DNA of 43,713 nucleotides, from contig JALLON010000002.1 of assembly GCA_027717925.1 (NCBI GenBank), positions 1-43,713 on the forward strand, read 5' to 3'. The DNA is from Acidobacteria bacterium AH-259-G07. Its GTDB lineage: Bacteria > Acidobacteriota > UBA6911 > RPQK01 > JADFOI01. A model generated the notes under the pieces. That model made no database searches, had not been told where the DNA came from, and saw only the letters and a program-made list of their open reading frames with translations. Numbering within the stretch: the stretch's first letter is position 1; each line of letters opens with the position of its first letter. Of this stretch, positions 14,752 to 32,794 are shown piece after piece. The position numbers and the translations under genes were made by a program.

Positions 14752-14893
14752 TCCGTTGGGATTTTGTTGTGTGGTAGGTTGATTGTATGGGGAAGAGAAG
14801 CTAAGGGGCGTAAAATGGTTTGTCTATCATGAACGAGAGGCCACCTCCGCCAAAGCCGCCAACGCCACCTCAGCCACCACCTAAACCTCCTAG

Positions 14894-15120
14894 TCCTCCT
14901 CCGTCCGGGGTTAAGCGTCTGAGTTGATGCCATTGGTCATCTTGAGTGTTGAGTGATGTTGACAAATGATGAAATTCGGGGTGTGGTGAGGTTTTAGGAC
15001 GCCGAGCACAAAAAAAGCCGACCATATGGTCGGCTTTACTTGTCTTAACGCCAAAAACTCTTAGTTCTTATTGCCGGTATCTGTCCATTGAGCGGGGGCG
15101 ATAGTGAGGCAGATTGAACA
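14894..15120 (+). repeat. ghost mobile-element end, copy 1 (includes a decayed excisionase 3' end)
   Basis: It shares these blocks with 26913-27207 and 28211-28476: tcctcctccgtccgggg; ttgacaaatgatgaaattcggggtgtggtgag (14959-14990); ccgagcacaaaaaaa plus a hairpin; and tctgtccattga(g/c)cgggg. Read on the minus strand, the last block gives HYRPRSMDRYRQ*. Compare NYRPRSMDRNGRN* at the end of the intact excisionase gene (28351). Confidence 0.7.
15009..15037 (-). terminator. rho-independent terminator downstream of the 15203 gene (bidirectional-looking)
   Basis: Hairpin gccgacc-atat-ggtcggc (15017-15034). It is flanked by an A-run on the plus strand, which is a T-run on the minus strand. Confidence 0.7.
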
Positions 15121-15202
15121 CAAGTTCTAATGTTTACAATGCGGATGGAATAAATACAAACGACCGGGGTGTAATTACCAGCTGTTTGGGGTCAAACGTC
15201 CG

Positions 15203-16300
15203 TTACTTGTTCCCTGTCTCATGGATTTGGTGAAGCCGTCTAATTGTGGTGGCTGCCTCTTTATATCGCGTTTTTTGCTCTGACTCAGGTGTGGACCAAA
15301 GTTCCTTGAGCTTGAGCTTTATTGTTTGCAAAATTTCTTCATCATTGAGGGTACCGATAGCGTTGTGCGTCCTAATTGCTGTTGCCAAATCACTATGGTC
15401 TAAAGCTGACTGAGCAAAGCCACGAAGAGTAGCTTTGGCTCGCTCAGCTGCTGCCTCATGAAACTCTCTCTTTTTGCGATCCCACACTTCGAACTTGTAA
15501 GATTTGGGTGCTTTCTCCAAGGTGTGGTAACCCCAATCCTTGATTTTCTTGCCGAGATCGTAGTCATTCCGCATCCTACCCAACTTATCAGATAGTGCTT
15601 TTACTTCTTCCGGAGAAAGAAGTAGCGAGTTATTGGCTATCTCCCTTTCTTCGCCAATGAATTTAGCGAGCGTATCTATGACTTTGTCAGGCGTAATTTC
15701 CCGGAAGGATCGAACCCGGATTGGAACATTCTCTATGATCCTGTGAAGATACTGCTCTCTGGTGACTTGAGCGATTGGGATGTGGTACTCACTATAAACA
15801 GGCAATCGATATTCGCCGTAATTCTTCTGAGACGTTAGCAAGGTCGCCTGACTCAACACTTTTTCTTTCTGGAAGGCGGAAAGCTCATTGGGTGCTTTCA
15901 ACGCGAGGTAATTTGCATATCCGATGTCATGTGATTTCTCAAGTATAGTTTTGTATTCCAAGTCGTCATCAAATCTCTCGGGTGTCTCAGAGACATCAGC
16001 TAATCTTTCGCCTGATTCCTGGATCAATTCATAAAGCTCCTCCAACCCTTTCGTCTTTTTTTCCTTTTCAACGCCCATTTCCTGCGGACTTGGGCGCTCG
16101 TATTCACCGGGCAAATCCCATTGTTTTAATTGTTTTAATGGTTTGTTAACAATCATTGAAAAACGCTGTTTTTTTAAACAATCATCACCTGGTAGACCAA
16201 CACTGAAGTCGATCACAGCCCCGAGTGCTGAGGAGTCGGCCGGATTGTCGCCAGTTTTTAGAACTCTTGTCGGTTCAACAGCTCTGCGCGGCATCCGCAT
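15203..16300 (-). CDS. hypothetical protein (365-aa ORF; ATG at 16156 would give 317 aa)
   Basis: A long ORF with no motif I can assign. The start is uncertain. It is flanked on both sides by copies of the ttgacaaa..ggtggtgag junction sequence. Confidence 0.55.
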   Translation of the reverse strand: MRMPRRAVEPTRVLKTGDNPADSSALGAVIDFSVGLPGDDCLKKQRFSMIVNKPLKQLKQWDLPGEYERPSPQEMGVEKEKKTKGLEELYELIQESGERLADVSETPERFDDDLEYKTILEKSHDIGYANYLALKAPNELSAFQKEKVLSQATLLTSQKNYGEYRLPVYSEYHIPIAQVTREQYLHRIIENVPIRVRSFREITPDKVIDTLAKFIGEEREIANNSLLLSPEEVKALSDKLGRMRNDYDLGKKIKDWGYHTLEKAPKSYKFEVWDRKKREFHEAAAERAKATLRGFAQSALDHSDLATAIRTHNAIGTLNDEEILQTIKLKLKELWSTPESEQKTRYKEAATTIRRLHQIHETGNK

Positions 16301-16385
16301 GGATCATTCACGAGAGGTCGCCAAGCAAGAATCGTTCCAGTTCACGGCGAGGGACCAGACAACGTCGGTCGGTTCTCGATGATCA

Positions 16386-16440
16386 TTGACAAAATGTTCA
16401 GGAGGTGGTGAGTTTGAGCCGTTTTAGGCTCGGGGTCTCG
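16386..16440 (+). repeat. degenerate fourth copy of the junction sequence
   Basis: ttgacaaaatgttcaggaggtggtgagtttgagccgttttaggctcgg. Compare ttgacaaatgatgaaattcggggtgtggtgaggttttaggacgccgag at 14959. Confidence 0.5.
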
Positions 16441-17005
16441 AAAGAAGACCAAAAGTTTCAGTCGAGGGTAGTCAAAAATTTGACAATTTACCTATTCGGA
16501 AGTCTATCATTTTACCGAAAACGCGGCAAGCAACCTAGCTCAAGTTATCCACAACCTCTCTGCTTCAACATTCCAGAACCTGTCATGCCGACTTAAACTA
16601 TTCGGACGACAAACTGAACTGGGACCAACAGTGGTATCGTGTCACTGGGGCTCCCCTTATTGCCGGATCGATGGAGGACAGGGATTTATTGGGCAATCCT
16701 TGTCCCTGACCTGCCCCCACGAGTGGTACCACCCTCTAAGTTAGAGCCGGAATTTTGGCCCTATGACCGATCGCTATCCTGCTGTTAGAAAAGGCCGTTA
16801 GAAAATGCTATTGGAAAAATGCTAATTGAAGGCGTATATTGGGAATAACCCATAGAATTCAGAGGGGTTATCTTGCGCAGTAGATGTCACATAGTCCGCG
16901 GGCAGTTTGTTTCGGTATTTCCAAATTCTTTTCACAAGGCAGCCCCGGGAGGATAGGATCAAGCCAACAGTGAGTTGTGACTTGTCAGTAGCGGGAGGGA
17001 GTGTA

Positions 17006-18454
17006 GTGGAGTGTCCTCAAAAGTCTTTCCTTCATAGAGTTTTCTTGTTTCTTGTCATACTTTTAGGTTCCTGTAATGGATTACCTGACCCACCTCCTTG
17101 GGAGACATGCCCGGGCCTGGTTCCCAGAGACAGTTTGGCTGGGGCCACCAGGCCCTTGACTGCCGACGAGCTTGTTGTCTACCTGGACACCAGTGGCAGT
17201 ATGGCGGGTTATGTTTCCCTTGATCCCCAAAGACAAACGACTTTTAGTCGCACACTGCAAGAGTTACGGAGTCTCTTCAGCATCTTGGACCCACCAGTGA
17301 GAATTCTGGTGCGGCGAGTGGAGAAAACGGTGGGTCGGCCAGAGAATGATCGAGAACTGAGCACGGCATCTGTTACGAAAGAGATGTTTAGAGGAGGGGA
17401 AACGGATCTTGCAGGAGCCATCGGTCTCTTCCCCGAGAGTCTCAGCCGTGAGTTACGAGGTCAAACAGGGGAGGATGATTCTCGACCGCCTCGATTCCAC
17501 ATCTTAGTCACAGATGGAGTCCAATCAACAAAGGAAGAAAGATCTGACTCGCCCTGCATTGCTGGGTCAGATCAAATTTGTATTCGGAAAAAAATCCTTG
17601 AGTTACTGAACAGTGGCTGGGGAGGGTGTATCATTGGGATAAGAAGTGAGTTTGAAGGTAAGATCTATTCGGAAGTTAAGCCAGGACTCATTATTGATTA
17701 CAGCGACGAATCGGACATAGACAGATTTCGCCCATTTTACCTTTACATATTTTCCCCTGACCGTGTGGCTCTCGACGATCTGGTAGAGACCCTGATTGAC
17801 AGACTGGGCCAGGTAATTCAACAGCAAGATCTAATTCGTGTACTGCCTCTGACGTCTGGTTATAGAGTTGGTTTTGCGGAGGCCGAGTTGATCATTCCAG
17901 AGGAGCAAGAAGAGTGGTTGGAGCTTAGCAGGTTGAGGGAGGAGAATCCGGCGCGGCTAACGTTGAGGGTCAGTGTCGATACTGAGGATTCTGGGCCGAA
18001 ACCTTTTGATGTTTCTCTTTCCATTCCTTGGTCCAATACGGCTAAGAAGATTGGAACTCTGGAAGATCTCGCGGCACTTGTATGGTGGGATTTGACTATT
18101 CTGAACTGTGAGGATGTGGAAATTTCAATTGAAGACGAAAAACGACGGTATCCAGAGATTACTCTGATTGGGTACGAAACCGACCCAGCCGGACGAGTAG
18201 TGCTTCATGCGTCTGCTCAATGGCCGAAAGATATAGGTGTTCTTTCTTGGCACGTTTATCGGATCGAAGGACGCCTGGATCTGAAAGAGCATACGCCTCT
18301 ATGGGTCCGGGAATGGTCTACCAACTTGGATATCAGTGAGGAGACCGGAAACAGGACCCTTAACTTGGAAAGTATGCTCTTGGGGCTTTGGCGAAACGAT
18401 TTGCTTCAGCGTCAGGTTTTAGCCGAAGTTTGCATTAGAGTAGGACCTTTATGA
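17006..18454 (+). CDS. vWA-domain lipoprotein
   Basis: The frame is open from TTG 16907. GTG 17006 has GGGAGGGAG 5 nt upstream and gives (M)ECPQKSFLHRVFLFLVILLGSC, with lipobox LLGSC. MIDAS elements: YLDTSGSM (D at 17186), GGETDLAGAI, ILVTDGVQS. The roughly 280-aa C-terminal region is unassigned. Confidence 0.75.
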   Translation: MECPQKSFLHRVFLFLVILLGSCNGLPDPPPWETCPGLVPRDSLAGATRPLTADELVVYLDTSGSMAGYVSLDPQRQTTFSRTLQELRSLFSILDPPVRILVRRVEKTVGRPENDRELSTASVTKEMFRGGETDLAGAIGLFPESLSRELRGQTGEDDSRPPRFHILVTDGVQSTKEERSDSPCIAGSDQICIRKKILELLNSGWGGCIIGIRSEFEGKIYSEVKPGLIIDYSDESDIDRFRPFYLYIFSPDRVALDDLVETLIDRLGQVIQQQDLIRVLPLTSGYRVGFAEAELIIPEEQEEWLELSRLREENPARLTLRVSVDTEDSGPKPFDVSLSIPWSNTAKKIGTLEDLAALVWWDLTILNCEDVEISIEDEKRRYPEITLIGYETDPAGRVVLHASAQWPKDIGVLSWHVYRIEGRLDLKEHTPLWVREWSTNLDISEETGNRTLNLESMLLGLWRNDLLQRQVLAEVCIRVGPL

Positions 18455-18476
18455 CTTTTGGAGGTAGCTGAAGAAG

Positions 18477-18872
18477 ATGCTCGCTGAAATTTTGGGTTCT
18501 CGTATCCTAAGATTCTTTGCCAGCAACCGCGACTACGATGATTGGCAAGACACTGCCGGTGAGTGGATTTTTGCAGCAATTGTGGTGTCGGTGCTGGGCG
18601 CAGGTCTTATACTGGGTTACAAGTGGCTTCAGAAAAGGTTAGCGAGTGTCATTAAGAAACAGACGTGGAGCAGGAATGAAACGCTGGTTTTGGTGTTTGT
18701 AGGCCTTTTTCCGGTCTTTATCCTTGTTCTAATCGTCTGGTACTCTTCACGAGATTTTGTAAATGTAATCGGTGTTGGGGGTTTAATAAAAGGAACTGTA
18801 TTGTCCTGGATTCTATATCTGTTTTTCACAACGCTTGGGCACCTGGGGCCCTGGCGAAGAGAACTTTTCTAG
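18477..18872 (+). CDS. small membrane protein (131 aa, about 3 TM)
   Basis: ATG with GGAGG upstream. Hydrophobic helices: WIFAAIVVSVLGAGLILGY, LVLVFVGLFPVFILVLIVWY, VLSWILYLFFTTLG. It lies 22 nt after the vWA gene and 11 nt before the next gene. Confidence 0.7.
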   Translation: MLAEILGSRILRFFASNRDYDDWQDTAGEWIFAAIVVSVLGAGLILGYKWLQKRLASVIKKQTWSRNETLVLVFVGLFPVFILVLIVWYSSRDFVNVIGVGGLIKGTVLSWILYLFFTTLGHLGPWRRELF

Positions 18873-18883
18873 GGAGGCTTGTT

Positions 18884-21800
18884 ATGAAGAACGTCTTTAT
18901 AGCTATCGGAGGCAGTGGCGCCAAAGTGGCTGAAACTTTTCTTCGCCTCTTGGCTATTGGTTTTCCAACGCGGAGAGAAAATACTGTTCTCACAAGTTCT
19001 GGTAACTCTCTTCAGGTATGGCGAGTTGACACAGACCTTAACTCAGGTGCAGCCGCGTCGCTTCAAAGTTGTATGAGGGACTACACTGAATTGCAAAGGC
19101 ACCTTGGGGACGATGCTGGCAGTCGGTGGGCAATGGAGGTCGATCCCAAAATCCGCCATCTCAATCCACTACAATTATCTCCCGCTGATGCCAACGATAA
19201 CATTATCAAGACGCTCAGAGGAATTCTAGATTCGAGGTATGGCGATAAGAAAAGCTCCGCACCATTGCTCGACCCATTTTACGAAAACAATGAGCTTGAC
19301 GTCGTTATAGATAGAGGATTCTACCAAAAGCCCTTTATCGGGGCAGCTATAACGGCAGTCTTTGCGGACTCGCTGACAGACGAAACCTCACCAGCTGGAA
19401 GGGTAGCGAGACTTACTTCTTTCTACGACAATGAGACGAACTTTTTCGTATGTGGCAGTTTGCATGGGGGCACAGGAGCATCTGGACTACCAGTTATGGG
19501 GCGCTTCCTGAGCACGCGACGAAAACCTGGACGGCGATGGCGTATTGGAGCGTGCCTTTTGGCTCCTTATTTTATCCCTCCACAACCACCCTTCAAGGCC
19601 TTGGAAGCAACTGCACAAATCACGGATGAAAAGATTGAAGAACTAGTCGACCAGCACGCTAGTGACCCTGCCTTCAAAGATCTGTTGCCTGAGCGAAAGC
19701 GAGAACTAGTCCGGCAGATTCTCCAAGGCTTTTACGCAGATCCGAATGAGATGGAAGCTCGTGCTCGACAAAGCCTCCTATATTACAAAGAGTACAGTAG
19801 TGAATATTTTGACGAAGTCTACCTCGTTGGTAAACCGGAACCAGACAAGCTAACAATTTGGAGTAATGGCGGACCAAGTCAGAACAACCCGCTCAATTCA
19901 GCCGAAGTAGTTGCGGCCCTTGCGGCTTTAAGGTTTTTTTCCAGATCGAGCAAGGAGAAGCCTGGTCGCTACCTACTTGGTGCATCAACGGGGGACCTAG
20001 ATTCTCAGAAGATGAATTTGTATCAGTTGCCCAGATATAGCATTGGTTCTGGCGAAGACATTGACCCGGAGAAGGTTTTTCTGGCGACTGCCGTCCTGCA
20101 TCATCTTTTGCTTCACCAGATCCGTTGGGAAGTACCGGCTAAGAGTTGGAGTGGCATCGAGGGACTACGAGATGTTTATAAAAACAATGAGACAAAGAAG
20201 GAGTCCGACTACAAGGATTACCAGGAAGCTCTACGTATCATCGCTAACTTTGCGAAGTCGTTGGTTTCACCTCATGAGACGATTGCGAGAGGGTGGAGCG
20301 GTGCTGATTCAAGCCAATTCCATGAGTTTTTCTCAGGTGACGAGGGTAGGATCAAGCAAATTACAAGCAAAGTAGCTAGGAAAAATCCGTGGAGTATTGG
20401 GGCCAAAGGGTCTCTCGTTTTGGGGCGGTCTGAGATCACGGTGTCCACAGTAGCATTCGGTAGATGGTCTCCTCCAGGGCCACAGTTTGATCGAGGTGAG
20501 TATCTTCGTTCTATTTGGTCTGAGCTCTATAGTAGGGCGTGCGATGTTAAAGGTGGCGAAACAAGCAAGGGGAGCGCCAAGGTGTTCCTTAATAGGGGTA
20601 TCGTGGGCGGTGGAGCAGGTGTTTCTGCAGACCGCATTTTTTTCACTCTGGCAAAAGACGATGTCGATGTGCCTGAATACGATCCAAAATTCTTTGAAAC
20701 CTTTCCAACGGCATGGGCCAGTGCTTATGCCTTTGTCAAAACGCTTGAGGCTAATAAGACGTCAGAGGATCGAACGGTGAAAATCGCAACCGAAGAATGG
20801 GCCTCTCTCCTTCTGCTCCATTATTACGGGATTGCCCATTTACAAGAGTACGGGAGAGAAGAGCTGCAGAGAAATTACGATAAGGATCTCTGGCCTGCCC
20901 TGAGTGGAACCTATCCTGCCAAAGGTACCGACCTTGACAGGGTAAGCGTGCTTGAAACTGACGATGCAACTGTCTTGGGAGGATACTATGAAGAAGTCGT
21001 ATTTTTCCCAATTCGCAATCGCTCTAAGTGGAGCCAAACAAAAGAGACAGTTCTTGGCAGGTATCTCGGGGAAGGTTGGCGGCGATTATCCTGGAAGCTT
21101 TGTTCCGAAGAACTTTTGAAAGAGGACGACAGGAAGAAAGAGTTCCATAAGCACCTGAGGCAGGTTATAGAAATTCTGCCGAGTTCGAAACTCAAACACC
21201 GATTAGAGAGGTTCTGTGACAGTAAGTTTGGCAAATGGCTAGGTGTTTTAGTAGGTTCTTTGACTAGATACCCGAGAGAATGGGAGATTCCTGCTGACCA
21301 GCCTAAATCGCCTAGCACGCTCTTAGATGCGTATCCGTTCAAGAAAGGGGACGAAAAGGTCGGATATACCTATTATCTGGTTTCGGGAATGCCACAGCCT
21401 CAGCCGTGGGCTACTAAGGTTATTGTCAAGGAAGGCTGCTCCCCGTATCAGTATAGAAGGACCGGTAAATCTGAAATTACAGTCTATCTTGCCGGTCAAA
21501 AGATAAAATGTTCTCTGAGAGATAATGATAAGATTGTTGAGCTTAAAGAACTTTTTTTGTCCGATGACCCCTATTGGTCCAAAATCGATCACCCATCGGA
21601 AACTCACTCCTTTAGGATAAAGCCCTTCCACATCGTAGACTTGCGAGCTCCTGAGCTGAAAAGTGACGAGATGGCTGTGTGCCTGGCGCCACTCAAGAGA
21701 GAATTCTTAGAACATTTCCCTGAGTTGTTTTCAAATCTGGACAGAGTAGGAGTTTTCGCGGATGGGGATGCTGTGGTTTGGTCAATGCCAATAGTTTTTG

Positions 21801-23953
21801 AAGAAGAGGAAAAAACTCTTCTCTGGCGTACTACACCTATCTTACATAAGGCGCTTTCTAAGACATCAGTGGCCATCTGGCCTCCAAAGGTTTCCGACGA
21901 GTGGAGACTCTATATAGCTTATGTAACTGGTGGCAAGAAGAAAGAATGGGGATCATGGCACCTGATTGACGAGAATGGGGTAAAAGGTACGAGCATTGAA
22001 CTAGAAGAGGATGAGCACGTTAGTGTTCTAAAGAATGTGAACTCGCCGAACAGACCCAGAGCCTTACTTTTTGAGGACCATAAGAGTACAGAAAGGGGTC
22101 TTTTGCTCCTCGCTGGTTCCGACAAGGACAAAGACATTCGTGCCCCAAGCCTAGATACAAAGGTCGTCTTGTCTGTCGATTTCGGAACGAGTAACACATG
22201 TTTTGCTTACAAGAAGACTGATTCTTCGGTCCTCACTTTTGGTGTCAGTCCGGCAATGGTTTGGGGACCCAGTTTCCCTGAAGGGCCTGGCTTTGTCCCT
22301 TTTGAATGGGGGGGCAGGAAGGGCTTTTTCCCAACAGTTTTGCTATCGAGGCGGAACGCACGGAAGCTGTTTGAGATCGACCCGAGCGAGATTAGAATCG
22401 AGCAGTTGACCAGAGTCGACATCCCAGGTCTCCATTTCGGATTGGAGAAAGCCCTATATCATGGAGAGTTAAACGCGCTGTGGGAAGGGCACACAGACTT
22501 AAAGTGGGGTTTAGACCTCCAGACTCCCTGGCGTTCTTTGTTTCTGGCATTATCGCTACTTTACGCCCATGCTGAAGTGTTTTTCGGTGATGACAAGGGC
22601 GGGAAAATCGATCAGTATGTTTTTACCTTTCCATTAGCAATGTCTACCAACAAAGAGCACTTTCACAACGAAGTACGAAGGCTAATTCGGAAGGTGCGAG
22701 AGTGGTGCTACGGTTCGAGCTCAACGGATTTGGATTACATCGACTACATTAGTGAAAGCATAGCTGTTGCACGTCACGCTCGTGTCGGTAAGAGCCGATC
22801 AAGCATTGATTTATTCATTGATGTAGGTGGAGGAACCGCAGACATTGCTGTGCGTCGCAAGCACGACTTCCTAGCTTTGGATAGCATCAGGGTGGCCGGA
22901 AACACCTTTTTCAAGTTCGCTCAAAAGAATTTCGCTGAGGATGAGGATATTGTAGGGGCCTCGCAGTTCAAAAGGCATCTGGCCAGAGTTTTGTTGCCTG
23001 GGAAGGCTGGTGAACTTGAGGCCAAGGATCTGCCAATGGATCTAAGCACTTTTTACTCCCTTGCGATAAATGCTTTGACAGATGAAGAGTTTAGACGATG
23101 GGAAGCAACAGTGCTAAAGGAAGGCATGGGAGAAAGAAAGAAAGACCCCTCTTATCAGCAATATCGGACGCGTTTGCTTTTCCGTCATCTTTTAGCTTAT
23201 TCGCTACTCCAAGCATGTGCTGCTACTATCCATCATCGATGTGAACTTAGAGATGGTATCAAAGTGATCCTCGCAGGGAACGGCTGGGGCCTAATGTTGT
23301 TTGGAGAACTTACCAGAAGAAGCGAAGAAATAAAAGAGGAATCCAATAGAATCCTTGGACTCTGGAAACCCAAAATGTTGGAGCTGATCGATGAAGCCGA
23401 GGGTGAGTATTTGGACCAACTTTTTGTGCGAGACGTAGAACTGCTGAATGAAAAGAACTTTGCACAAGCAAAGACGGCCGTGAGTCTTGGCGCTCTGAAT
23501 GCTGTGGAGGAGGGGCAGAAAAGTGAAACTTTGGTGAGGCCATACACGGGAATTACAATCAAAAACCTGAGGATCAATGACGACTTGGGCCCGACTACTC
23601 TGCGTTGGTGCGATAAGTGGGGATATGAGGTCCTTAAAGAGAGATTCGATTCGTTGGAGGATATTGAGAGCGTTGAGTTTGAGGTACCCCCGCAACTTCG
23701 CAAACCGCTAGATTCCATCATGACTATATTCACTTGCCTCGGAAACGCCAGGAGAATTGATCAAGATAACTCGCCTCCGGAGTTGTGGCACGATGTCAAT
23801 GCCGAGCTTGCTAGCTACATTACAGGTCTGAGTGGGCGAGAAATGGGCCCTTGCCCAGTTAATTATTTCCTTTCTGGGGTGTTATACGCCGAGGATGAGC
23901 AGCGGGATTTTCTAGATATACTCGCGGAGACTAACGGTCGCTATAGCGCGTAG
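18884..23953 (+). CDS. 1689-aa fusion protein: N-terminal tubulin/FtsZ-like GTPase domain, about 700-aa unassigned middle, C-terminal Hsp70/actin-like (ASKHA) ATPase domain
   Basis: ATG with GGGAGG 7 nt upstream. N-terminal motifs: VFIAIGGSGAKV (T1 loop-like, 18908), WRVDTD, RGFYQKPFIGAAI, and FVCGSLHGGTGASGLPV (tubulin signature GGTGSG-like, 19463). C-terminal motifs: VVLSVDFGTSNTCFAY (phosphate-1, D at 22178), LFIDVGGGTADIAV (phosphate-2, D at 22820), VILAGNGWG (adenosine-motif-like). No TM segments. Confidence 0.75.
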   Translation: MKNVFIAIGGSGAKVAETFLRLLAIGFPTRRENTVLTSSGNSLQVWRVDTDLNSGAAASLQSCMRDYTELQRHLGDDAGSRWAMEVDPKIRHLNPLQLSPADANDNIIKTLRGILDSRYGDKKSSAPLLDPFYENNELDVVIDRGFYQKPFIGAAITAVFADSLTDETSPAGRVARLTSFYDNETNFFVCGSLHGGTGASGLPVMGRFLSTRRKPGRRWRIGACLLAPYFIPPQPPFKALEATAQITDEKIEELVDQHASDPAFKDLLPERKRELVRQILQGFYADPNEMEARARQSLLYYKEYSSEYFDEVYLVGKPEPDKLTIWSNGGPSQNNPLNSAEVVAALAALRFFSRSSKEKPGRYLLGASTGDLDSQKMNLYQLPRYSIGSGEDIDPEKVFLATAVLHHLLLHQIRWEVPAKSWSGIEGLRDVYKNNETKKESDYKDYQEALRIIANFAKSLVSPHETIARGWSGADSSQFHEFFSGDEGRIKQITSKVARKNPWSIGAKGSLVLGRSEITVSTVAFGRWSPPGPQFDRGEYLRSIWSELYSRACDVKGGETSKGSAKVFLNRGIVGGGAGVSADRIFFTLAKDDVDVPEYDPKFFETFPTAWASAYAFVKTLEANKTSEDRTVKIATEEWASLLLLHYYGIAHLQEYGREELQRNYDKDLWPALSGTYPAKGTDLDRVSVLETDDATVLGGYYEEVVFFPIRNRSKWSQTKETVLGRYLGEGWRRLSWKLCSEELLKEDDRKKEFHKHLRQVIEILPSSKLKHRLERFCDSKFGKWLGVLVGSLTRYPREWEIPADQPKSPSTLLDAYPFKKGDEKVGYTYYLVSGMPQPQPWATKVIVKEGCSPYQYRRTGKSEITVYLAGQKIKCSLRDNDKIVELKELFLSDDPYWSKIDHPSETHSFRIKPFHIVDLRAPELKSDEMAVCLAPLKREFLEHFPELFSNLDRVGVFADGDAVVWSMPIVFEEEEKTLLWRTTPILHKALSKTSVAIWPPKVSDEWRLYIAYVTGGKKKEWGSWHLIDENGVKGTSIELEEDEHVSVLKNVNSPNRPRALLFEDHKSTERGLLLLAGSDKDKDIRAPSLDTKVVLSVDFGTSNTCFAYKKTDSSVLTFGVSPAMVWGPSFPEGPGFVPFEWGGRKGFFPTVLLSRRNARKLFEIDPSEIRIEQLTRVDIPGLHFGLEKALYHGELNALWEGHTDLKWGLDLQTPWRSLFLALSLLYAHAEVFFGDDKGGKIDQYVFTFPLAMSTNKEHFHNEVRRLIRKVREWCYGSSSTDLDYIDYISESIAVARHARVGKSRSSIDLFIDVGGGTADIAVRRKHDFLALDSIRVAGNTFFKFAQKNFAEDEDIVGASQFKRHLARVLLPGKAGELEAKDLPMDLSTFYSLAINALTDEEFRRWEATVLKEGMGERKKDPSYQQYRTRLLFRHLLAYSLLQACAATIHHRCELRDGIKVILAGNGWGLMLFGELTRRSEEIKEESNRILGLWKPKMLELIDEAEGEYLDQLFVRDVELLNEKNFAQAKTAVSLGALNAVEEGQKSETLVRPYTGITIKNLRINDDLGPTTLRWCDKWGYEVLKERFDSLEDIESVEFEVPPQLRKPLDSIMTIFTCLGNARRIDQDNSPPELWHDVNAELASYITGLSGREMGPCPVNYFLSGVLYAEDEQRDFLDILAETNGRYSA

Positions 23954-24038
23954 CACTGAGAGTATTTTCGAGAATTCTGGACGATTTGTTGGTTGATTTA
24001 AAGCTCCAAGCAGTGGACAACAAGGGAGTTCTTACTCC

Positions 24039-24875
24039 ATGAGGGTACGGATGCGAAGACGCCGGATTTTAATGCTGAAGCAGGTATTCGTCGGAGTCCT
24101 AGCCTTTCTAGTTCTTGTCGTGGTCCTAGTTCTGCCAGCGATTTTGGTTAACGCGGGCGTAGTTGAGTGGATAGAACTAGTCGCTGTAGGGGTGTTAGTG
24201 TTGCTCACGCACCTGGTGCTACTGTGGAGAAAGAATGTAGACTTTTTGAGCGAAATGCTCGTCAGCTTGGAGAGAATCGCTGTCTCCATGGATGCGATTC
24301 TTGATGACAAACGGGAAGCTTGGGATTACACTCGCGGGGCTTTTGACGGGTCAGTTGCTAGACTCGAAAGGAATATTATCTCTGAATTAAAACCGTTGAA
24401 AACGGAAATTAGCAACATCCTCAATGAACTGGTCAAATCCAAAACCCTTCTCACGCATTTGGAGCGAGCGTCGGTTCCTGCTCATGAGGCTAAGATGCCA
24501 CAAGGCGAGGACCGGTCGAAAGCAATACTGGATGAAGATACTCGATCTCCTTTCGTGTTTCCGGTTTCAGCCGATGAGTTTATAAGCGCTACTGAAAGCA
24601 AGGCGATTGTAGCAAAGGATGATTTGAGCGGCATTCTAGTGAGGGATATGGAAGGCAAAGGGCAGTTCCTAATCATACCCAATGCTACTGGTGGAATTCT
24701 TATCCCGAGGTTGGCGCATTTCAACAGGAAGTCCGATTTCTATACTCACTATGAAAAATATTACTATTGCAGCAACCCTTCCGCGGGAGCCATTTCGATC
24801 GTTCGGCCTGCCACTGTCGGTCAAGTGACAGGGGGTTGGAAACTTACAGAAAAAGGACAGCTGGAGATTAGTTGA
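24039..24875 (+). CDS. membrane-anchored coiled-coil protein (278 aa, 2 N-terminal TM)
   Basis: ATG start. TM helices: VFVGVLAFLVLVVVLVLPAILV and IELVAVGVLVLLTHLVLLW. These are followed by a coiled-coil segment and an unassigned, roughly 110-aa C-terminal domain (FLIIPNATGGILIPRLAHF...YYYCSNP). Confidence 0.65.
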   Translation: MRVRMRRRRILMLKQVFVGVLAFLVLVVVLVLPAILVNAGVVEWIELVAVGVLVLLTHLVLLWRKNVDFLSEMLVSLERIAVSMDAILDDKREAWDYTRGAFDGSVARLERNIISELKPLKTEISNILNELVKSKTLLTHLERASVPAHEAKMPQGEDRSKAILDEDTRSPFVFPVSADEFISATESKAIVAKDDLSGILVRDMEGKGQFLIIPNATGGILIPRLAHFNRKSDFYTHYEKYYYCSNPSAGAISIVRPATVGQVTGGWKLTEKGQLEIS

Positions 24876-24879
24876 CTCT

Positions 24880-26490
24880 ATGGCCTACCGCAGTGCTCAA
24901 GACCAGCAACTGAAGGTCTTTTGTCCTACACACAGTCTAAGCTTTCGAGTCCTTCGAAGCAGCGTCATTCTTTGTAGCGATGGCTCGCACGCATTGTCCC
25001 AAGATTTCCCGTATGGGGAATATTGGTGTTTCTGTTGTGATTGCCAGAATTTCTGGCCCTCAAATTTGACAGGGGAGGGCTTACGGTGGAAGCAATGTGT
25101 CGTTTGCGGTCGGCAAGTCGCCAGGCGATATTTGTGTCCTAAATGCAAGGTGGTGAGTTTTGAATCGACTGAATCGGAAGAAGAAAAGTCTTTCAGTATC
25201 TTAAGGAACGGCGTAATACAACCGTCCTGTCCGGCATGTTTTTCCACTCTGAATGTTCCGGCAGCGTCTCATCAGTGTTCAGAAGTCAAAGCCCTTCTGA
25301 TGATCAGCACGGCCTCATGCCCTTTTTGCCAGGAGCCCATCGATTCAGAGAGAGAACAAGGTAAGGAAATGCGTGCAGAGCCTCAGCATGGCAACAAGGC
25401 CGTGGTCAGCAAGAGGCTACCTAAGACTAAGATCAAGAGTGGCATGCGAGACGCGGCCAGCAATGTGCGGCCTCTGGTTCGAGGCAAAAAGGGTAGTTCA
25501 TTCCCAGAAAATCGAAGGGAAAAGTCCGATGATGCAAGCCAAGCCTCACAAGAGGAATCAAGGAGTGACCAGGAACTGGAGTTAGAACTCCAAAAAATGA
25601 CCGAAAAGATGGGCGAGTTGGAATCAAGCTATTCGGAAGTACAGCAGTTAGCGCAAGAGAGATTGGAAGGGCTTGAGCAAAAGGAAAACGCTTTACAGCG
25701 AATGAAAGCGCATGCTCGATTCGGGTGGGTTTTGGGCTTGTCCACTATTGCGATGATAATCGTTCTGCTAATCTTCTCGCCAACCGGCTCCAAGGAAGCG
25801 AGTGGATCTGACAAGCTAGACGAGTTGCAGAAGCGTAACCAGGAACTGGAGTTAGAACTCCAAAAAATGACCGAAAAGATTGGCGACTTGGAATCGAGCT
25901 ATTCCGAACTACAACAGTTAGCACAAGACAGATTGGACACAGCACAATTTCTTAACCGGGAACTTGAGCAAAGAGAAAATGCTTTACGTCGGATGAGAGC
26001 GGAAACTGGGTCTTCCATTAACTCTTACGAGGGCAGGGTCCGAACCCTAGCCACAGAAAAGACTGAGCTCTCATTGAGTAACGAGAAGCTCAAGAGTCAG
26101 AACACGGGATTGACATCAAGAATTCGTGAGTTGGAAACGAACTTGAAGGTGAAAGAGGCGGAGCTACGGGAGATTGCCAGAAAAGAAGCTCCCTTAGCCG
26201 TTGACAATGCTAAAGTTCCTAGGACGGGAATCGTTCATTGGCGTTGTCAAGACCGGAAGGGTGAGGTGTTAGTCGAGATCTGGGAGAATAAGGCAAATGT
26301 CGGTATGGTCACGGACGGTGTGTTGCCGCAAGTTCCTGTAAAGTTTACTGATGTTAATCGCGTAGGAAGAGTTGAGATCCTTTCAATGAAACCACCTACC
26401 CACAGCAACTCCTCTGCTCAATTCATACTCCGAGTAAAAGATGAAGATCCCTTCGGTCTTGTAATATTCTGGGAGAGGTTGGGCCAGTGA
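24880..26490 (+). CDS. Zn-ribbon-rich, single-TM coiled-coil protein (536 aa) with internal duplication
   Basis: It starts 4 nt after the previous stop. The N-terminus has multiple Cys pairs (CFCCDC, CVVCG, CPKC, CPAC, CPFC). A duplicated segment QELELELQKMTEK(M/I)G(E/D)LESSYSE(V/L)QQLAQ(E/D)RL lies on either side of the TM helix FGWVLGLSTIAMIIVLLIF. The C-terminal beta-like domain is unassigned. Confidence 0.7.
   Translation: MAYRSAQDQQLKVFCPTHSLSFRVLRSSVILCSDGSHALSQDFPYGEYWCFCCDCQNFWPSNLTGEGLRWKQCVVCGRQVARRYLCPKCKVVSFESTESEEEKSFSILRNGVIQPSCPACFSTLNVPAASHQCSEVKALLMISTASCPFCQEPIDSEREQGKEMRAEPQHGNKAVVSKRLPKTKIKSGMRDAASNVRPLVRGKKGSSFPENRREKSDDASQASQEESRSDQELELELQKMTEKMGELESSYSEVQQLAQERLEGLEQKENALQRMKAHARFGWVLGLSTIAMIIVLLIFSPTGSKEASGSDKLDELQKRNQELELELQKMTEKIGDLESSYSELQQLAQDRLDTAQFLNRELEQRENALRRMRAETGSSINSYEGRVRTLATEKTELSLSNEKLKSQNTGLTSRIRELETNLKVKEAELREIARKEAPLAVDNAKVPRTGIVHWRCQDRKGEVLVEIWENKANVGMVTDGVLPQVPVKFTDVNRVGRVEILSMKPPTHSNSSAQFILRVKDEDPFGLVIFWERLGQ
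25569..25937 (+). repeat. in-frame intragenic direct repeat (about 99 bp x2, 270-bp offset)
   Basis: 25569-25667 versus 25839-25937. The first 42 nt are identical (ccaggaactggagttagaactccaaaaaatgaccgaaaagat). The rest is about 85% identical by eye. Confidence 0.85.
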
Positions 26491-26762
26491 ATCGAGAGCT
26501 GTCCTGCCCGGAAGTTGGTGATCCTGAAATGAAGTCTCTTTCTGCGCAGTGGGCCGAATCACTCCATCTGGGCAAGGATTTGGGCGAACTTGTGCTGGAC
26601 AAAAAGCCGCAAACTGCACGTGAAGAAATAGAAACCTTTGTTGCTTGTCTGAACCTCCTGCTCAAACAAAACGCAAAGTTTGAACTAGCTGATTGGCGTG
26701 AGAGGCAATATGGGACCCACATGGCACAAGCCGCAATAATAAAGGTAATGCCTCCTGCCTAA
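26487..26762 (+). CDS. small hypothetical protein (91 aa), last gene of the operon
   Basis: The GTG start overlaps the preceding TGA (GTGA at 26487-26490). No motif assigned. Confidence 0.5.
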   Translation: MNRELSCPEVGDPEMKSLSAQWAESLHLGKDLGELVLDKKPQTAREEIETFVACLNLLLKQNAKFELADWRERQYGTHMAQAAIIKVMPPA

Positions 26763-26912
26763 ACCAAATTCTTCTGCGGGCAAAAAGCCTCCGGCTTTCG
26801 GAGTACTAGGGTGAAAAAGGATCATCAGGGATTCCGATACTCCACCACAATTTCTCCGCTCTGACGAATCAAAATATCCACATCATCATCCCCTACTGGG
26901 TCGTTATGATTG

Positions 26913-27207
26913 TCCTCCTCCGTCCGGGGGTTAGGGTCTGAATTGAAGAGCATCGTGCATCTTGATCCTGAGCGAAGTTGACAAGTGATGAAATTCGGTG
27001 TGTGGTGAGTTTTTAGTCCTCCGAGCACAAAAAAAGAGCGGGGATGAACCCGCTCTCTTGCCTTTCTGACCTAGTCTCGCTTTAGTTGCGACCGTTTCTG
27101 TCCATTGACCGGGGCCGATAGTTTTGCTGTTCGATCCATTCCAGTATTTGTTCTTTTACGAAGCGGACATTTGATTGGATTTTCACGTAGGGAATAAGTA
27201 GCCGCTG
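26913..27207 (+). repeat. ghost mobile-element end, copy 2 (contains the 3' third of an excisionase gene)
   Basis: It is near-identical to 28211-28476 apart from a 17-bp indel. Minus-strand translation gives ...LLIPYVKIQSNVRFVKEQILEWIEQQNYRPRSMDRNGRN*, the C-terminus of the 28351 protein. Homology stops at about 27207. Confidence 0.85.
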
Positions 27208-27421
27208 ATTCTAGGACTCCAGCTCCGCAAATTTGTCGGCCAAGGAATTTTGAAAATAAGCAAGCGAGCTTTCAAATCGCTCACGAGTAAAATCTGATTC
27301 TGTCATTCTGAGGTCATCTGCGTCTTCAGATCAGATAGTGGAGGTAACGGAGGACATATAGAATTTCAGCATAGGTTATCCCTAGGGGGCAGGGGTCCCT
27401 CTCACCAACCGGCCAGCACGC

Positions 27422-27928
27422 CTATTCAAACAAGGAACCCGGCTTATTCGGGTTGCAGATCACGTGTGTGTGTTTCCAGGATCCGTCCAGCTGGCGTCGA
27501 AGAATGTCAATGCACTTCATTTCGATCTCCATGGGCTCGCCGCCCGCCTTCGGGATGCGCCTTCCCGTGTGAGTGCCCCGTTGGAATGCCCAGTCACCGG
27601 CTACAATGACTTCTTCGTGCGACATGGTGAATTCAGCCTTCCACGGAGAACGATGAGTTTGCCACCACGAGCGAAGCGCTTCCTTCCCTACAACGGGTGG
27701 TTCGTTCGGCCACATCCATACTATGTCGTCACTCCATAGGGACATGAGGGCACCCAAGTCGCCCGCATTGATTGCGGCTACCGCTTGCTCTCGCACCCTC
27801 TTGACCGCCTCCACGTCTGCCTCGGTGGTGGGAGCTTCTTCGACGGCAGGCCCCGGCTCCGGCGCACAGTCTTGCGAAGATATACTGACTAGAAAGATCA
27901 CAACCCAAAAACTCGATAATTGCCTCAT
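27422..27928 (-). CDS. SnoaL-like/DUF4440 (NTF2-fold) exported or lipoprotein
   Basis: ATG with GGGAGGGGG upstream. Signal sequence FWVVIFLVSISSQDC. Motifs AVAAINAGDLGALMSLWSDDIVWMWP...GKEALRSWW are typical of SnoaL/DUF4440. The gene is GC-rich compared with its flanks. Confidence 0.65.
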   Translation of the reverse strand: MRQLSSFWVVIFLVSISSQDCAPEPGPAVEEAPTTEADVEAVKRVREQAVAAINAGDLGALMSLWSDDIVWMWPNEPPVVGKEALRSWWQTHRSPWKAEFTMSHEEVIVAGDWAFQRGTHTGRRIPKAGGEPMEIEMKCIDILRRQLDGSWKHTHVICNPNKPGSLFE

Positions 27929-28210
27929 TGGATATCCCCCTCCCGGGAGCCTCGAGGATCTAACCTAATAATTCGCCCATATAACAATAAGTATCCTGGT
28001 CAGTATAACACCCCCGGTTATCCCTATAAACGGTCAGCGAAACGTGGCCAAAGTCCTGCCGTAATCAGATTGCCTGCAACAGGTTCCGCTGTACATTCCC
28101 TCAGAGCGAGAGTGTTATGCCTATCCGCATATCACCGGTTTGGTGTCGTGTCCATGGGGCTCCGAACGCCCTTCGGCCCCTGACTGAGTACGTGGGCGTA
28201 GACCATCGGC

Positions 28211-28476
28211 CATCCTGATCCTGAGCGAAGTCCTGATTGAGCTGAAGTTGACAAATGGTGAAATTCGGGGTGTGGTGAGTTTTAGGATTCCGAGCACAAA
28301 AAAAGAGCGGGGATGAACCCGCTCTCTTGCCTTTCTGACCTAGTCTCGCTTTAGTTGCGACCGTTTCTGTCCATTGACCGGGGCCGATAGTTTTGCTGTT
28401 CGATCCATTCCAGTATTTGTTCTTTTACGAAGCGGACGTTTGATTGGATTTTGACGTAGGGGATAAGTCCCCGCTG
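28211..28476 (+). repeat. mobile-element end, copy 3 (the intact one, overlapping the excisionase 3' end)
   Basis: It contains catcctgatcctgagcgaag, a local 17-bp duplication, ttgacaaatggtgaaattcggggtgtggtgag (28248-28279), the terminator, and the excisionase 3' end. Confidence 0.85.
28298..28325 (-). terminator. rho-independent terminator of the excisionase gene
   Basis: Hairpin agagcggg-atgaa-cccgctct (28305-28325), followed on the minus strand by a T-run (28298-28304). Confidence 0.75.
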
Positions 28477-28599
28477 TACATAGCTATAAATCGTCTTCAC
28501 ATCTATCTTTAAAATCGCCTCAAGTTCCTTTGCGGTAAGTAACTCTGGGATATGTCTGGAACTTGATTGGCGTTCTGTGGTTTTAGGTCGAGCATCCAC
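28351..28599 (-). CDS. excisionase-family (MerR-like) HTH DNA-binding protein
   Basis: GTG start with AGGAG 6 nt upstream. LLTAKELEAILKIDVKTIYSYVQRGLIPYVKIQSNVRFVKEQILEWI is the classic excisionase-family helix-turn-helix pattern. Confidence 0.8.
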   Translation of the reverse strand: MDARPKTTERQSSSRHIPELLTAKELEAILKIDVKTIYSYVQRGLIPYVKIQSNVRFVKEQILEWIEQQNYRPRSMDRNGRN

Positions 28600-28639: not shown

Positions 28640-29332
28640 TTATTCTCCTTTCTTGTGATGATGAGGACTCGGTGCTGATCCCAGTATCGAGTGGATCTCA
28701 TGGTCAGCAAGCCGTGTCCAAATTTTGTCTAAAATACTCTCTGGATTATCCAGGGAGAGCTTATGTTCCTCGGTGAAGAGGAACATGCGTCCGAGCGCCT
28801 GTAACTCCTCGGCATCCTCTGCCGAGGAGACGAGATTCGCTTTCCGCATGGCGCTCGTAGTTATCGTAAGCACCCGGAAGTAGCGGATGCCAAATCTGTC
28901 TTCGTGCTTTTTCTCCCGCCAATAGGCGGCATAACCTTTTAGTTTCAGCGTGAAACGCTTAAGGGTCATCGTGCCACGGTCAGCTTCAAGGAAGAAATAC
29001 ATCCTGCCTTTGGCATCCTTTATGCCGAAGAAGGCGTCAGGGGCAACGGGGACGCGGGCGTAGCCCCCTTCAAGGGCCACCTCAATTGCATCGTAGATCT
29101 CTCTGCCCTCTCTCCAGAAAAGCAGCTGGAGGTCTTCACGCCTCCGGCATGCTGTGGCAATCACCGCTCGGACCTGAGTTATAAGGAGGCGGTGGTTGAT
29201 GGAAAGGTCCTGGAGGGAGCGGTTTTTTTCATTCCAGTCAGTCTGTGTTACCTCTTGGATCACCCCTTCCTTTTGGAGTTCCCGGAACCCTTTGTTGGTG
29301 ATGACCTTGTAAGGTAGGATCTCGTTAGCCAT
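28640..29332 (-). CDS. replication-relaxation family protein
   Basis: ATG with AAGGAGG upstream. INHRLLITQVRAV...VAPDAFFGIKDAKGRMYFFLEADRGTMTLKRFTLKLKGYAAYW matches the Replic_Relax pattern (H..., PDa-f, ffLE-DrGT, K---Y). Confidence 0.6.
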   Translation of the reverse strand: MANEILPYKVITNKGFRELQKEGVIQEVTQTDWNEKNRSLQDLSINHRLLITQVRAVIATACRRREDLQLLFWREGREIYDAIEVALEGGYARVPVAPDAFFGIKDAKGRMYFFLEADRGTMTLKRFTLKLKGYAAYWREKKHEDRFGIRYFRVLTITTSAMRKANLVSSAEDAEELQALGRMFLFTEEHKLSLDNPESILDKIWTRLADHEIHSILGSAPSPHHHKKGE

Positions 29333-29398
29333 CGCAACCTCCTTTACAGGTTGGGTGGTCAGGTCTCACATCCTGCTGTGTACAGGGTGTGAGACCGC

Positions 29399-30364
29399 TT
29401 ACCACCTATCTTTGGTTTTTAGCAGTTGGAAAAGTAGGTGTTCGTCAACGGTGTCAGGCTGTTTTCCAGCCGGCAGGGACACACTTTTGACGAAAAAATG
29501 CCGGGCAATCCTTAGCAGAATCTTGTCTTGGGCTTGACGGCCTGGTTCGTCTCCATCAAGAAGCAAAATGAAACAACGCGCTTTGCTTTTAAGAAGCAGG
29601 TTTTCCTGAGCTTGGGAGAGCGTATTTCCCATCAGAGCTACTGCTTGGACCCCCAGCTGGTAAAGGCGGAAGACAGACCAGTAGCCCTCGACGATCACTA
29701 CGATCTTTGCTTCAGTGACGCGATGAAGGTTAAAAAGTACATGGCTTTTCTTGAAGCCAAGCGGAAGTTTGTACTTTTCCTCTCCCTCTGGCAGTTCATC
29801 TCCGGCCCATCGGCCTGCGTAGGCAGCAAGTTTCCCTTTTTCATCATGAATCGGGATAGCGATACGGTTTTTCATCAATCCCCGCTTGCAGTAGCCAAGG
29901 CCAAAAAACTTGACGACTTGAGCATCCAGCCCCCTCTCTTTGAGGTAGGGATGGTCTGGGTCAAGCTTGAGCGTGAAGGTCAGAGGATGATTAATTGCTT
30001 CTGGCCGCTTTTCTTTTTGTGAGGTGTTGTGGGTTTTTGGCCTTTGGTTGGCCCCAGGAGGGCCAACCATGGTCTCACGCATGTCAAACCATTCACTAAG
30101 TAGGAGAGCAGCTTCTCTGATGCTCACAACCTCTTTTTGAGAAACGAAGTCCAATACATTGCCTTTGGCGCCGCAACCGAAACAATAAAAGACACGCTTC
30201 TGGGTGTTTACTCGAAATGAGGGATTCTTGTCCTCATGGAAAGGACAGTGCCCGAGGAGTTCTCTGCCGTTCGTTGATTTTAACTTCACGCCGTAGCGAT
30301 CAAGAATTGCCTGAAATCTTACCTCTTCCTTTACTTTCTTGAAGTTCACCCAATTTTCTTTCAT
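29399..30364 (-). CDS. DNA primase (CHC2 zinc finger + Toprim)
   Basis: The ORF is open to 30508, but ATG 30364 forms an ATGA overlap with the upstream gene's stop. Zn finger: GHCPFHEDKNPSFRVNTQKRVFYCFGCGAKGNVLDFV. Toprim: IVVIVEGYWSV...LLLDGDEPGRQA. Confidence 0.85.
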   Translation of the reverse strand: MKENWVNFKKVKEEVRFQAILDRYGVKLKSTNGRELLGHCPFHEDKNPSFRVNTQKRVFYCFGCGAKGNVLDFVSQKEVVSIREAALLLSEWFDMRETMVGPPGANQRPKTHNTSQKEKRPEAINHPLTFTLKLDPDHPYLKERGLDAQVVKFFGLGYCKRGLMKNRIAIPIHDEKGKLAAYAGRWAGDELPEGEEKYKLPLGFKKSHVLFNLHRVTEAKIVVIVEGYWSVFRLYQLGVQAVALMGNTLSQAQENLLLKSKARCFILLLDGDEPGRQAQDKILLRIARHFFVKSVSLPAGKQPDTVDEHLLFQLLKTKDRW

Positions 30365-31035
30365 GACCGCGATAGACCCTCCGTTGCGCGAACTTTTGAT
30401 GTTGTACCTTCCTTTTGGGATTTTTCCTGCAAGTTTTTTCGCAGATGGTTTACGAGTTTTTTGATGTGGTAGCGGACGGTGCCGGGTGATCGGTTCATCG
30501 CTTTGCACTTGTCTTTCAGACGGCGCAGGTCTGGATCGAGGTAGATTTCAAGCACCTGGCGATCTTTCGGCGAGAGTTGCTCTGACACCTTATAGACGCG
30601 CTCCATGAGTATGCGCCTGTCCCAGTCGGGCTGCGGATTATACGGAATGTCGGGCAAGGTTTCTGGGAATATGAGGCGTCGTGCCTTCCTGATGTGATCG
30701 ATGCTCAACGTCCTGAGGGTGTGGTAGAAGTAGCTCTCGGCAACGCGCGGGTGATCGAATAGGGCTTCGGCGGCAAGAAACTTCAGGCAGGCGTGTTGGA
30801 AAATGTCCTGTTCCTCCTCGCGGTCATAGATGTATCGGCGGATGTAGCCGAAAAACTTTTTCCGCCCGTTCCAGAATTCGGTGACAAGCGCAGATTTGGA
30901 CAGATGCGTTTGTTTCGGCGGTCCTTCCTTATTCACGATATTTCTCCTTTGATAGTTGATTGGGAGGTTCATTCCTCCGCTCCAGGGGCGAGTGACCCCC
31001 ACTGCGGAGGAATCAACATCCTTGGGAAGTTCCAC
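30361..31035 (-). CDS. sigma-70/ECF-like protein
   Basis: Region-2-like: FFGYIRRYIYDREEEQDIFQHACLKFL...SYFYHTLRTLSIDHIRKARR. Region-4-like HTH: LSPKDRQVLEIYL...NRSPGTVRYHIKKLVNHLRKNL. The start is uncertain; an alternative ATG is at 30972. Confidence 0.6.
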   Translation of the reverse strand: MELPKDVDSSAVGVTRPWSGGMNLPINYQRRNIVNKEGPPKQTHLSKSALVTEFWNGRKKFFGYIRRYIYDREEEQDIFQHACLKFLAAEALFDHPRVAESYFYHTLRTLSIDHIRKARRLIFPETLPDIPYNPQPDWDRRILMERVYKVSEQLSPKDRQVLEIYLDPDLRRLKDKCKAMNRSPGTVRYHIKKLVNHLRKNLQEKSQKEGTTSKVRATEGLSRS

Positions 31036-32752: not shown

Positions 32753-32794
32753 CCCCAAAATTCTTTGAGAGCATGATTGACGCGGTTGTGATAG

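Follow-up and report, generated by a model that had tools for sequence, protein, structure and literature searches.

Accretion of related mobile elements, followed by their decay, is established for integrative and conjugative elements (ICEs), integrative and mobilizable elements (IMEs), and cis-mobilizable elements (CIMEs) (PMC5704250). In composites of this kind, such as the ICESt1-related islands of Streptococcus thermophilus (PMC5704250), units are stacked in the same orientation, all but one of them without mobility or maintenance genes, and blocks of cargo are separated by repeated borders that include the 3′ end of a gene. Here, we describe a similar arrangement on a metagenomic contig from Acidobacteria bacterium AH-259-G07 (JALLON010000002.1, assembly GCA_027717925.1); the entire contig, 43,713 nt in length, is referred to below as the window. 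The window is a composite in which one intact core module is accompanied by border remnants of at least three other related units, cargo lying in between. In the intact core, a gene for a VirD4/TrwB-like type IV coupling protein (T4CP) is divergent from an operon encoding an extracytoplasmic function (ECF)-type sigma factor, a DnaG-like primase, a Replic_Relax protein, and, last, a small helix–turn–helix (HTH) protein of the HTH_17 family. This core belongs to an uncharacterized family of putatively mobilizable elements. Accretion and decay of related elements are already known, and it is the element family itself that is undescribed; we consider it probable that the locus arose in this manner, related elements having accreted and their redundant cores having been lost.

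The likeness to ICE, IME, and CIME composites ends at the repeats. There, the repeats are attachment (att) sites in which the 3′ end of a chromosomal target gene is included, with an integrase gene beside one of them; here, it is the element’s own HTH_17 gene whose 3′ end is repeated, the stumps of that gene vary in length, and chromosomal integration is not evident. Lambdoid phages and plasmids offer a second comparison, in that they evolve as mosaics through conserved linker sequences between modules, exchange normally replacing modules without leaving gene stumps. As in those genomes, short noncoding sequences at our locus (border modules that we designate F1, F2, and T) are more conserved than the surrounding genes and are placed where gene content changes; unlike them, the locus accumulates stumps and extra linker copies. 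Integron arrays provide a third, since single-gene inserts (a SnoaL-like gene here, a methylase gene in a relative) lie 3′ of a fixed gene and are each followed by a copy of the repeat. However, we rejected an integron cassette array, because the window holds no IntI-type integrase, the only hairpin of the repeat is a terminator whose stem varies between alleles, and a search of Rfam at gathering thresholds found no known RNA family in the repeat; nor is there an attC-like imperfect palindrome, and the other inserts are multi-gene segments of 5–12 kb in both orientations.

Border copies and gene stumps

Self-comparison of the window identified three copies of one ordered set of blocks (14893-15120, 26912-27207, and 28200-28476), in agreement with the initial annotation of this DNA, which had described three such copies sharing a single orientation. 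On the minus strand, each copy runs from the end of an HTH_17 gene through an intrinsic terminator to a 32-nt block, a block termed D8, and, in the 14.9- and 26.9-kb copies only, a further block termed D7 (gtcctcctccgtccgggg...). D7 is confined to 14893-14927 and 26912-26946, and is the leading block that had previously been assigned to just two of the copies. The repeat as a whole, F1, is the 3′ border of the core module, comprising the end of the HTH_17 gene (the last 42 codons of the resident gene lie inside it), the terminator, and approximately 110 nt of conserved downstream DNA. The hairpins of the copies are good intrinsic terminators with a good U-tract when read on the minus strand, the strand of the HTH gene. 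A short degenerate fourth copy had also been proposed (16386-16440), but its local alignment score of 17 is chance-like, unrelated places in the window scoring 16 and 15, and we have discarded it. We note in passing that a small proline-rich open reading frame (ORF) on the plus strand (MNERPPPPKPPTPPQPPPKPPSPPPSGVKRLS and a stop; 14830-14928) has the D7 block as its 3′ end; it may be the remnant of a convergent gene, or it may be non-coding.

The copies differ considerably in how closely they resemble one another. Those at 26.9 and 28.2 kb are 93.6% identical over 249 nt (26960-27207 against 28231-28476), but very unevenly so: the longest stretch without a mismatch covers 149 nt (27020-27168 = 28289-28437), and the arms around this core are approximately 88% identical. 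The 14.9-kb copy is 74% identical to the 26.9-kb copy over 217 nt (14893-15105 against 26912-27122; E 2e-31), and 74.5% identical to the resident copy (14949-15105 against 28237-28391; E 4e-20). The 32-nt block (TTGACAARTGRTGAAATTCGGKGTGTGGTGAG; minus-strand form CTCACCACAC(C/A)CCGAATTTCA(Y)CA(Y)TTGTCAA) is nevertheless 31/32 identical between the 14.9-kb and resident copies, whose terminator regions are about 55% alike. At two or fewer mismatches, it occurs at exactly three places in the window (14959, 26978, and 28248, all +), and dinucleotide shuffles of the window gave zero matches. The uneven identity of the 26.9/28.2 pair, together with a 31/32 block beside such dissimilar terminator regions, argues that the copies are mosaics of several alleles.

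What the copies share extends beyond the terminator to coding remnants and the 32-nt block, and collection-wide scans do not place F1 among repeats of the repetitive extragenic palindromic (REP) type, so that neither of the two outcomes named in advance as refuting the initial annotation was obtained. A 21-mer taken from the most conserved block, with 20 bases specified, gave a single match (21 nt) in species-representative genomes totaling 596 Gb, and a 20-mer (19 specified bases) gave two 21-nt matches in JGI metagenomes. These three isolated matches (in L001, L009, and L010; loci outside the window carry L numbers) have no adjoining HTH gene and no flanking similarity, so that, with the source genome itself unavailable to the scans, a generic repeat resembling REPs or miniature inverted-repeat transposable elements was rejected. 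A sigma-70 promoter in the block containing TTGACA was likewise rejected, as there is no acceptable −10 element on either strand and no plus-strand gene after any copy. The 32-nt block is probably, if tentatively, a protein-binding site; we predict this function on the basis of its conservation and of the AATTCGGGG that it has in common with the F2 sub-repeats described below.

The two ghost copies (14.9 and 26.9 kb) carry ends of the HTH_17 gene, and the peptide traces read earlier proved correct on translation. Positions 27207-27085 encode the C-terminal 41 residues of the 82-residue HTH_17 protein, with 97.6% identity; an ORF end is thus present where the initial annotation placed one, although it represents half of the protein rather than a third. 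Within the clear coding homology, the stump differs from the resident gene at three positions (27169, 27184, and 27193), all of them third-codon positions, which points to divergence under selection before truncation. At 14.9 kb, 15106-15071 encodes YRPRSMDRYRQ followed by a stop. An intact HTH gene in L012, from another metagenome, whose protein is 91–92% identical to that of the window, ends in RSMDRYRQ and a stop followed by the hairpin gccgaccatttggtcggc, and both the C-terminus and the terminator stem of the 14.9-kb ghost are of this L012 type (12 aa at 92%, E 5e-4), unlike those of the resident gene. Judged by these sequences, both stumps are derived from other alleles of the HTH_17 gene.

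These observations bear directly on whether any other element need be invoked at all. Replication slippage or unequal crossing-over could in principle have duplicated the resident border in situ, with neutral decay thereafter, and the 26.9- and 28.2-kb copies, 1,269 nt apart and about 94–96% identical, would suit such an origin. However, in-situ duplication does not account for a 14.9-kb stump with the C-terminus and terminator stem of an allele that is intact elsewhere, for differences in the 26.9-kb stump that all fall at third-codon positions, for the strongly uneven identity along the pair, or for the unrelated cargo between copies, and we regard it as very unlikely.

Probable accretion of related elements and competing explanations

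Remnants of other borders are also present in the window. F2 modules are noncoding G/T-rich arrays of roughly 35-nt sub-repeats carrying RAATTCGGGG and GGATTTTGGCGG; one (F2c, with a perfect palindrome at 32796-32830) lies on the T4CP side of the intact core, and two more are ghosts. Their iteron-like form alone makes them a candidate origin or iteron array; no oriT was identified. T is a 62-nt terminator module found 3′ of the primase or ArdC gene in L024-L028; in the window, 75 nt separate its ghost from F2b, and the core is absent from this gap. Between elements, F2 and T are conserved at 82–93%, compared with 73–78% DNA identity for the core genes in the metagenomic relatives L024-L029; F2 itself, present twice in L024 and also in L027 and L029, shows 82–87% identity, above the core genes.

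Read in the direction of the HTH gene, the window begins with F2c, a small ORF, the T4CP, sigma, primase, Replic_Relax, and HTH genes, F1, and the SnoaL insert. It continues with a stump, F1, D7, and an operon plus the gene at 15203, and then with a second stump, F1, D7, and ChW, BNR, and Ymh genes. It concludes with F2b, 75 nt without a core, T, a TIR gene, a caspase-like gene, and F2a. All seven border modules have the orientation of the intact ones, and the decayed units have kept borders and cargo: a stump with F1 at 14.9 and at 26.9 kb, and F2b, 75 nt, and T at 9.3-9.6 kb. The locus is an unusually legible record of element growth, in which a live core is followed by cargo blocks tagged with stumps of the cores from which they came.

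In the explanation that we favor, related elements, each with its own cargo, would have been joined head to tail, either by tandem integration or by co-integration through shared sequence. Redundant cores would then have been deleted, with end-points in or just past the outermost core genes, so that what remained would be cargo blocks with border stumps between them. The 149-nt identical center of the 26.9/28.2 pair could have arisen afterwards, when copies recombined or underwent gene conversion. The arrangement of F2b and T with the core missing, and the variable lengths of the stumps, both favor accretion followed by deletion.

Related loci contain scars of the same kind. In L011, which comes from another study, the end of a Replic_Relax gene is followed by an HTH gene that shares 86% DNA identity with the window, a gene for an N6/N4 methylase, and a second HTH 3′ end with its terminator, approximately 55 nt being duplicated on both sides of the methylase insert. 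L024 contains a 43-nt stump of a T4CP 3′ end (93%) located 2.3 kb beyond the intact T4CP gene, with cargo between; two F2 copies flank this cargo, and the order F2, x, T4CP, sigma, primase, T, cargo, F2 follows the same grammar as the window. Among 30 related loci, L011 alone has an HTH stump. Together with the L012-type allele at 14.9 kb and the third-codon divergence at 26.9 kb, the stumps in L011 and L024 bear out the earlier proposal that the repeats are scars of related mobile elements. The cargo at the HTH border varies (L004-L007 have type I restriction-modification genes, L011 and L027 a methylase gene, and L013 an unrelated gene), as does that after the primase (ArdC in L026, PLD-SNF2 plus methylase in L024). 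The HTH-proximal border, F2, and T are thus places of gene-content turnover in an uncharacterized family rich in defense-type genes.

L011 also informs the question of whether the window might be an assembly artifact, in which co-existing variants of an element were stitched together via shared repeats. A 149-nt exact repeat is close to the large k-mers used in assembly, and close relatives are mostly found on contigs of 1–3 kb, which suggests that assembly graphs break at repeats. Since the repeat matches a common assembly k-mer size, an assembly graph does not distinguish the path through the 26.9- and 28.2-kb copies from an empty site accompanied by a circle of 1,269 bp. The 14.9-kb copy, however, is too diverged (74%) to mislead an assembler, and L011 has the same type of junction in a separate study. 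Furthermore, cargo joined to the middle of an HTH gene cannot arise from the collapse of intact variants, and stump junctions therefore exist in real molecules. We consider an artifact of this kind highly improbable.

A more substantial competitor is the capture of cassettes at the HTH 3′ end. Here, a circle of cargo carrying a copy of the HTH 3′ end would insert by a single crossover, duplicating the shared segment; the crossover could rely on homology (Campbell-type), or it could be site-specific, with a core around ACTATCGSCCCCGGTCAA, and the HTH 3′ end would serve as a dedicated loading point. The SnoaL insert (992 nt, one gene, with CAGCGG shared at the stump junction) and the L011 methylase insert (approximately 1.5 kb, one gene) each lie between direct copies of the HTH 3′ end. 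The duplication in L011 closes with 33 identical nt, and the divergence of the resident copy sets in immediately beyond ...CTATCGCCCCCG(A)GGTCAA; the stump at 14.9 kb starts at about the point where the L011 copies diverge. In addition, ACTATCGNCCNC is invariant in 8/8 aligned sequences, and the 149-nt identical center lies between diverged arms. Under site-specific capture, junctions would be expected to cluster at ACTATCGSCCCCG, whereas scatter would fit deletion after accretion. With just three junctions to judge from, the observed boundaries, counted from the stop codon, are unequal (−126, about −83 in L011, and about −40 nt), and the only invariant stretch common to them is also coding, specifying the conserved NYRPR residues. 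No recombinase is linked to the site, and capture leaves both the arrangement of F2b and T with its missing core and the T4CP stump of L024 unexplained. We therefore think capture unlikely. Less likely still is the more ambitious version of this idea, in which the HTH_17 3′ end and F1 form a dedicated, integron-like cargo-loading site of a new primase/T4CP element family, with a capture core around ACTATCGSCCCCGGTCAA and perhaps guided by an element protein binding AATTCGGGG. If it were true, cassettes and larger modules, mostly of defense type and once a tubulin-like operon, would be loaded at the 3′ end of a gene in place of attI/attC.

The initial annotation had gone beyond scars to describe F1 as an element terminus and to suggest integration at one att site. 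Neither was shown by our analysis: F1 is the 3′ border of the core operon, its stumps end at differing positions, and no integrase adjoins it, the nearest 26 kb around F1 containing none. In distant acidobacterial relatives, by contrast, an HTH_17 gene is convergent with an integrase gene at the element end.

Several points weigh against accretion with loss of cores and should be set beside the evidence above. None of the junctions yielded an integrase, an att core, or a target-site duplication, and the only recombinase genes in the window are a separate high-GC pair at 1-1916. Stumps of other core genes were not detected in the window by tblastn, so that the deletions would all have had to end near core edges. 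To explain perfect identity over 149 nt within a pair that is otherwise about 88% identical, a further event such as gene conversion has to be assumed. Only about five close relatives were inspected, mostly on short contigs, and the window is itself a metagenomic contig in which the path through the 149-nt repeat relies on assembly alone.

A tubulin-like operon as cargo

The cargo between the two ghosts (15121-26911) comprises, as previously noted, the gene at 15203 and the whole of a plus-strand operon. The products of this operon are a von Willebrand factor A (vWA)-like protein of 515 aa with a DxSxS motif, a membrane protein of 131 aa, a protein of 1689 aa that has both tubulin-like and actin/Hsp70-like parts, and three more proteins (278, 536, and 91 aa). 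The N-terminus of the 1689-aa protein (18884-23953, +) contains the T1 and T4 loop motifs of tubulin (IAIGGSGAKV and GSLHGGTGASG), and there are actin/Hsp70 phosphate motifs near its C-terminus (VDFGTSNT and IDVGGGTADI); the Pfam matches of this protein, to Tubulin_2 (E 0.018, at the T4 loop) and MreB, are sub-threshold. An exhaustive profile search led from the N-terminal domain to stand-alone relatives of approximately 560 aa and, more remotely, to proteins matching Tubulin_2/Tubulin, one of them above the cut-off. In most relatives, the tubulin-like domain is such a separate protein of approximately 560 aa. The top Foldseek matches of a low-confidence model are mostly tubulin, TubZ, and FtsZ structures. 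Transitive homology and predicted fold thus support the assignment of the N-terminal domain as tubulin/FtsZ superfamily-like, in line with the label that the operon had been given at the outset.

Full-length relatives of the 1689-aa protein are exceedingly rare, numbering only two among 5.8 billion proteins, and one of these adjoins IS66, Tn3, and integrase genes. In view of this neighborhood and of the position of the operon between two stumps, horizontally mobile cargo, as the initial annotation had it, is a fair reading. PADLOC models gave no meaningful match on the cargo operon, and a PDB sequence search with the 515-aa protein gave no match.

The closest described systems are the FtsZl1 operons, which encode a vWA-like protein with a DxSxS motif (Makarova & Koonin 2010; PMC2875224). 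As in those FtsZl1/Tubulin_2-vWA operons, a tubulin/FtsZ GTPase domain here stands beside a DxSxS vWA-like protein and small membrane proteins; in contrast to them, the tubulin-like domain is the N-terminal part of a 1689-aa protein with actin/Hsp70 motifs, and its Tubulin_2 match is sub-threshold. That a very rare vWA/tubulin-like operon would travel as cargo is relevant to the question of whether FtsZl1-type systems have housekeeping or accessory roles. The gene for the 536-aa protein, which is a zinc-ribbon/coiled-coil protein, contains an internal tandem duplication of 270-291 nt (25565-25710 against 25835-26001, 78–91% identity).

Core module, HTH_17 protein, and remaining features of the window

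The coordinates of the features discussed here are collected in Table 1.

Table 1. Features of the window. Positions count from the first letter of the contig.
Feature	Positions	Strand	Evidence or details
F2a, partial ghost of F2 array	5344-5411	+	Self-BLAST
Ghost of terminator module T	9301-9364	-	Comparison with relatives
F2b, ghost F2 array	9440-9620	+	Self-BLAST
Ghost copy 2 of F1, different allele	14893-15120	-	HTH stump 15071-15106 (12 codons), stop 15068-15070, terminator of different stem 15014-15037, 32-nt block 14959-14990, D7 14893-14927
Cargo between the two ghosts	15121-26911		Gene 15203-16300 (-) without assigned function; operon 16907-26762 (+)
Proposed fourth copy of F1 (rejected)	16386-16440	+	Local alignment score 17
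Ghost copy 1 of F1	26912-27207	-	HTH stump 27085-27207 (41 codons), stop 27082-27084, terminator 27032-27059, 32-nt block 26978-27009, D8 26947-26978, D7 26912-26946
Single-gene insert between resident border and first stump	27208-28199	-	992 nt; SnoaL-like gene 27422-27928, Pfam SnoaL_2 1e-16
Resident F1 copy	28200-28476	-	HTH 3′ end, terminator 28301-28328, 32-nt block 28248-28279, 17-nt local duplication, D8 28200-28231
Resident HTH_17 gene, 82 aa, last gene of core operon	28351-28599	-	Pfam HTH_17 E 3e-12
Intact core module beyond HTH_17	28640-32402	both	
Replic_Relax gene	28640-29332	-	Pfam 6e-15
DnaG-like primase gene	29399-30508	-	Domain matches
ECF-type sigma gene	30361-31035	-	Domain matches
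VirD4/TrwB-like T4CP gene, divergent from core operon	31224-32402	+	Pfam 5e-13
F2c, iteron-like noncoding array, T4CP side of intact core	32790-32990	+	Self-BLAST

The last gene of the core operon had been described as an excisionase gene. Its product is a PF12728 protein that scores 25.9 bits against TIGR01764 (‘excise’), below the cut-off of 28.8, and no integrase adjoins it in the window, so that the label is unsupported; the best NCBIfam match, also sub-threshold, is the MAD1 HTH protein of MADS, a methylation-associated defense system. In two relatives from different studies, L011 (465-2383) and L027 (1-983), the HTH_17 gene runs into the beginning of a gene for a DNA methylase. Based on this overlap, on the type I restriction-modification genes that follow the HTH_17 gene in L004-L007, and on the defense-system HTH as best match, the HTH_17 protein may regulate downstream defense cargo rather than act as an excisionase.

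At the left end of the window, two tyrosine-recombinase genes (1-1916, -) have overlapping stop and start codons and a GC content of approximately 60%, compared with approximately 48% for the rest of the window. This pair looks like part of a multi-recombinase (RIT-like) element running off the contig end. The integrase at 669-1916 was considered as the element’s own and rejected, given its overlapping high-GC recombinase partner and its 26–27% identity to integrases that lie next to HTH genes in relatives. Accessory genes occupy the remainder of the window, among them caspase-like, TIR, Ymh, BNR, ChW, SnoaL, PLD, methylase, Schlafen/AlbA, and GmrSD genes. Neither the window nor L001 contains a tRNA or tmRNA target, PLSDB plasmids gave no match to similar DNA, and IMG/VR holds no relatives of the Replic_Relax protein. 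A circular contig was rejected, as the two ends of the window do not overlap. Many primase homologues at 50–57% identity are on contigs of 13–19 kb, a hint that small replicons, possibly circular ones, are part of the wider family.

Two observations concern ArdC. Codons 1-21 of the Replic_Relax gene (29270-29332, -) match the start of the ArdC gene located 3′ of the primase gene in L026, a match that suggests a recombination breakpoint shortly after the gene start. An ArdC-like fragment of 17 aa with 82% identity lies close to the right-hand end of the window (42977-43027, +).

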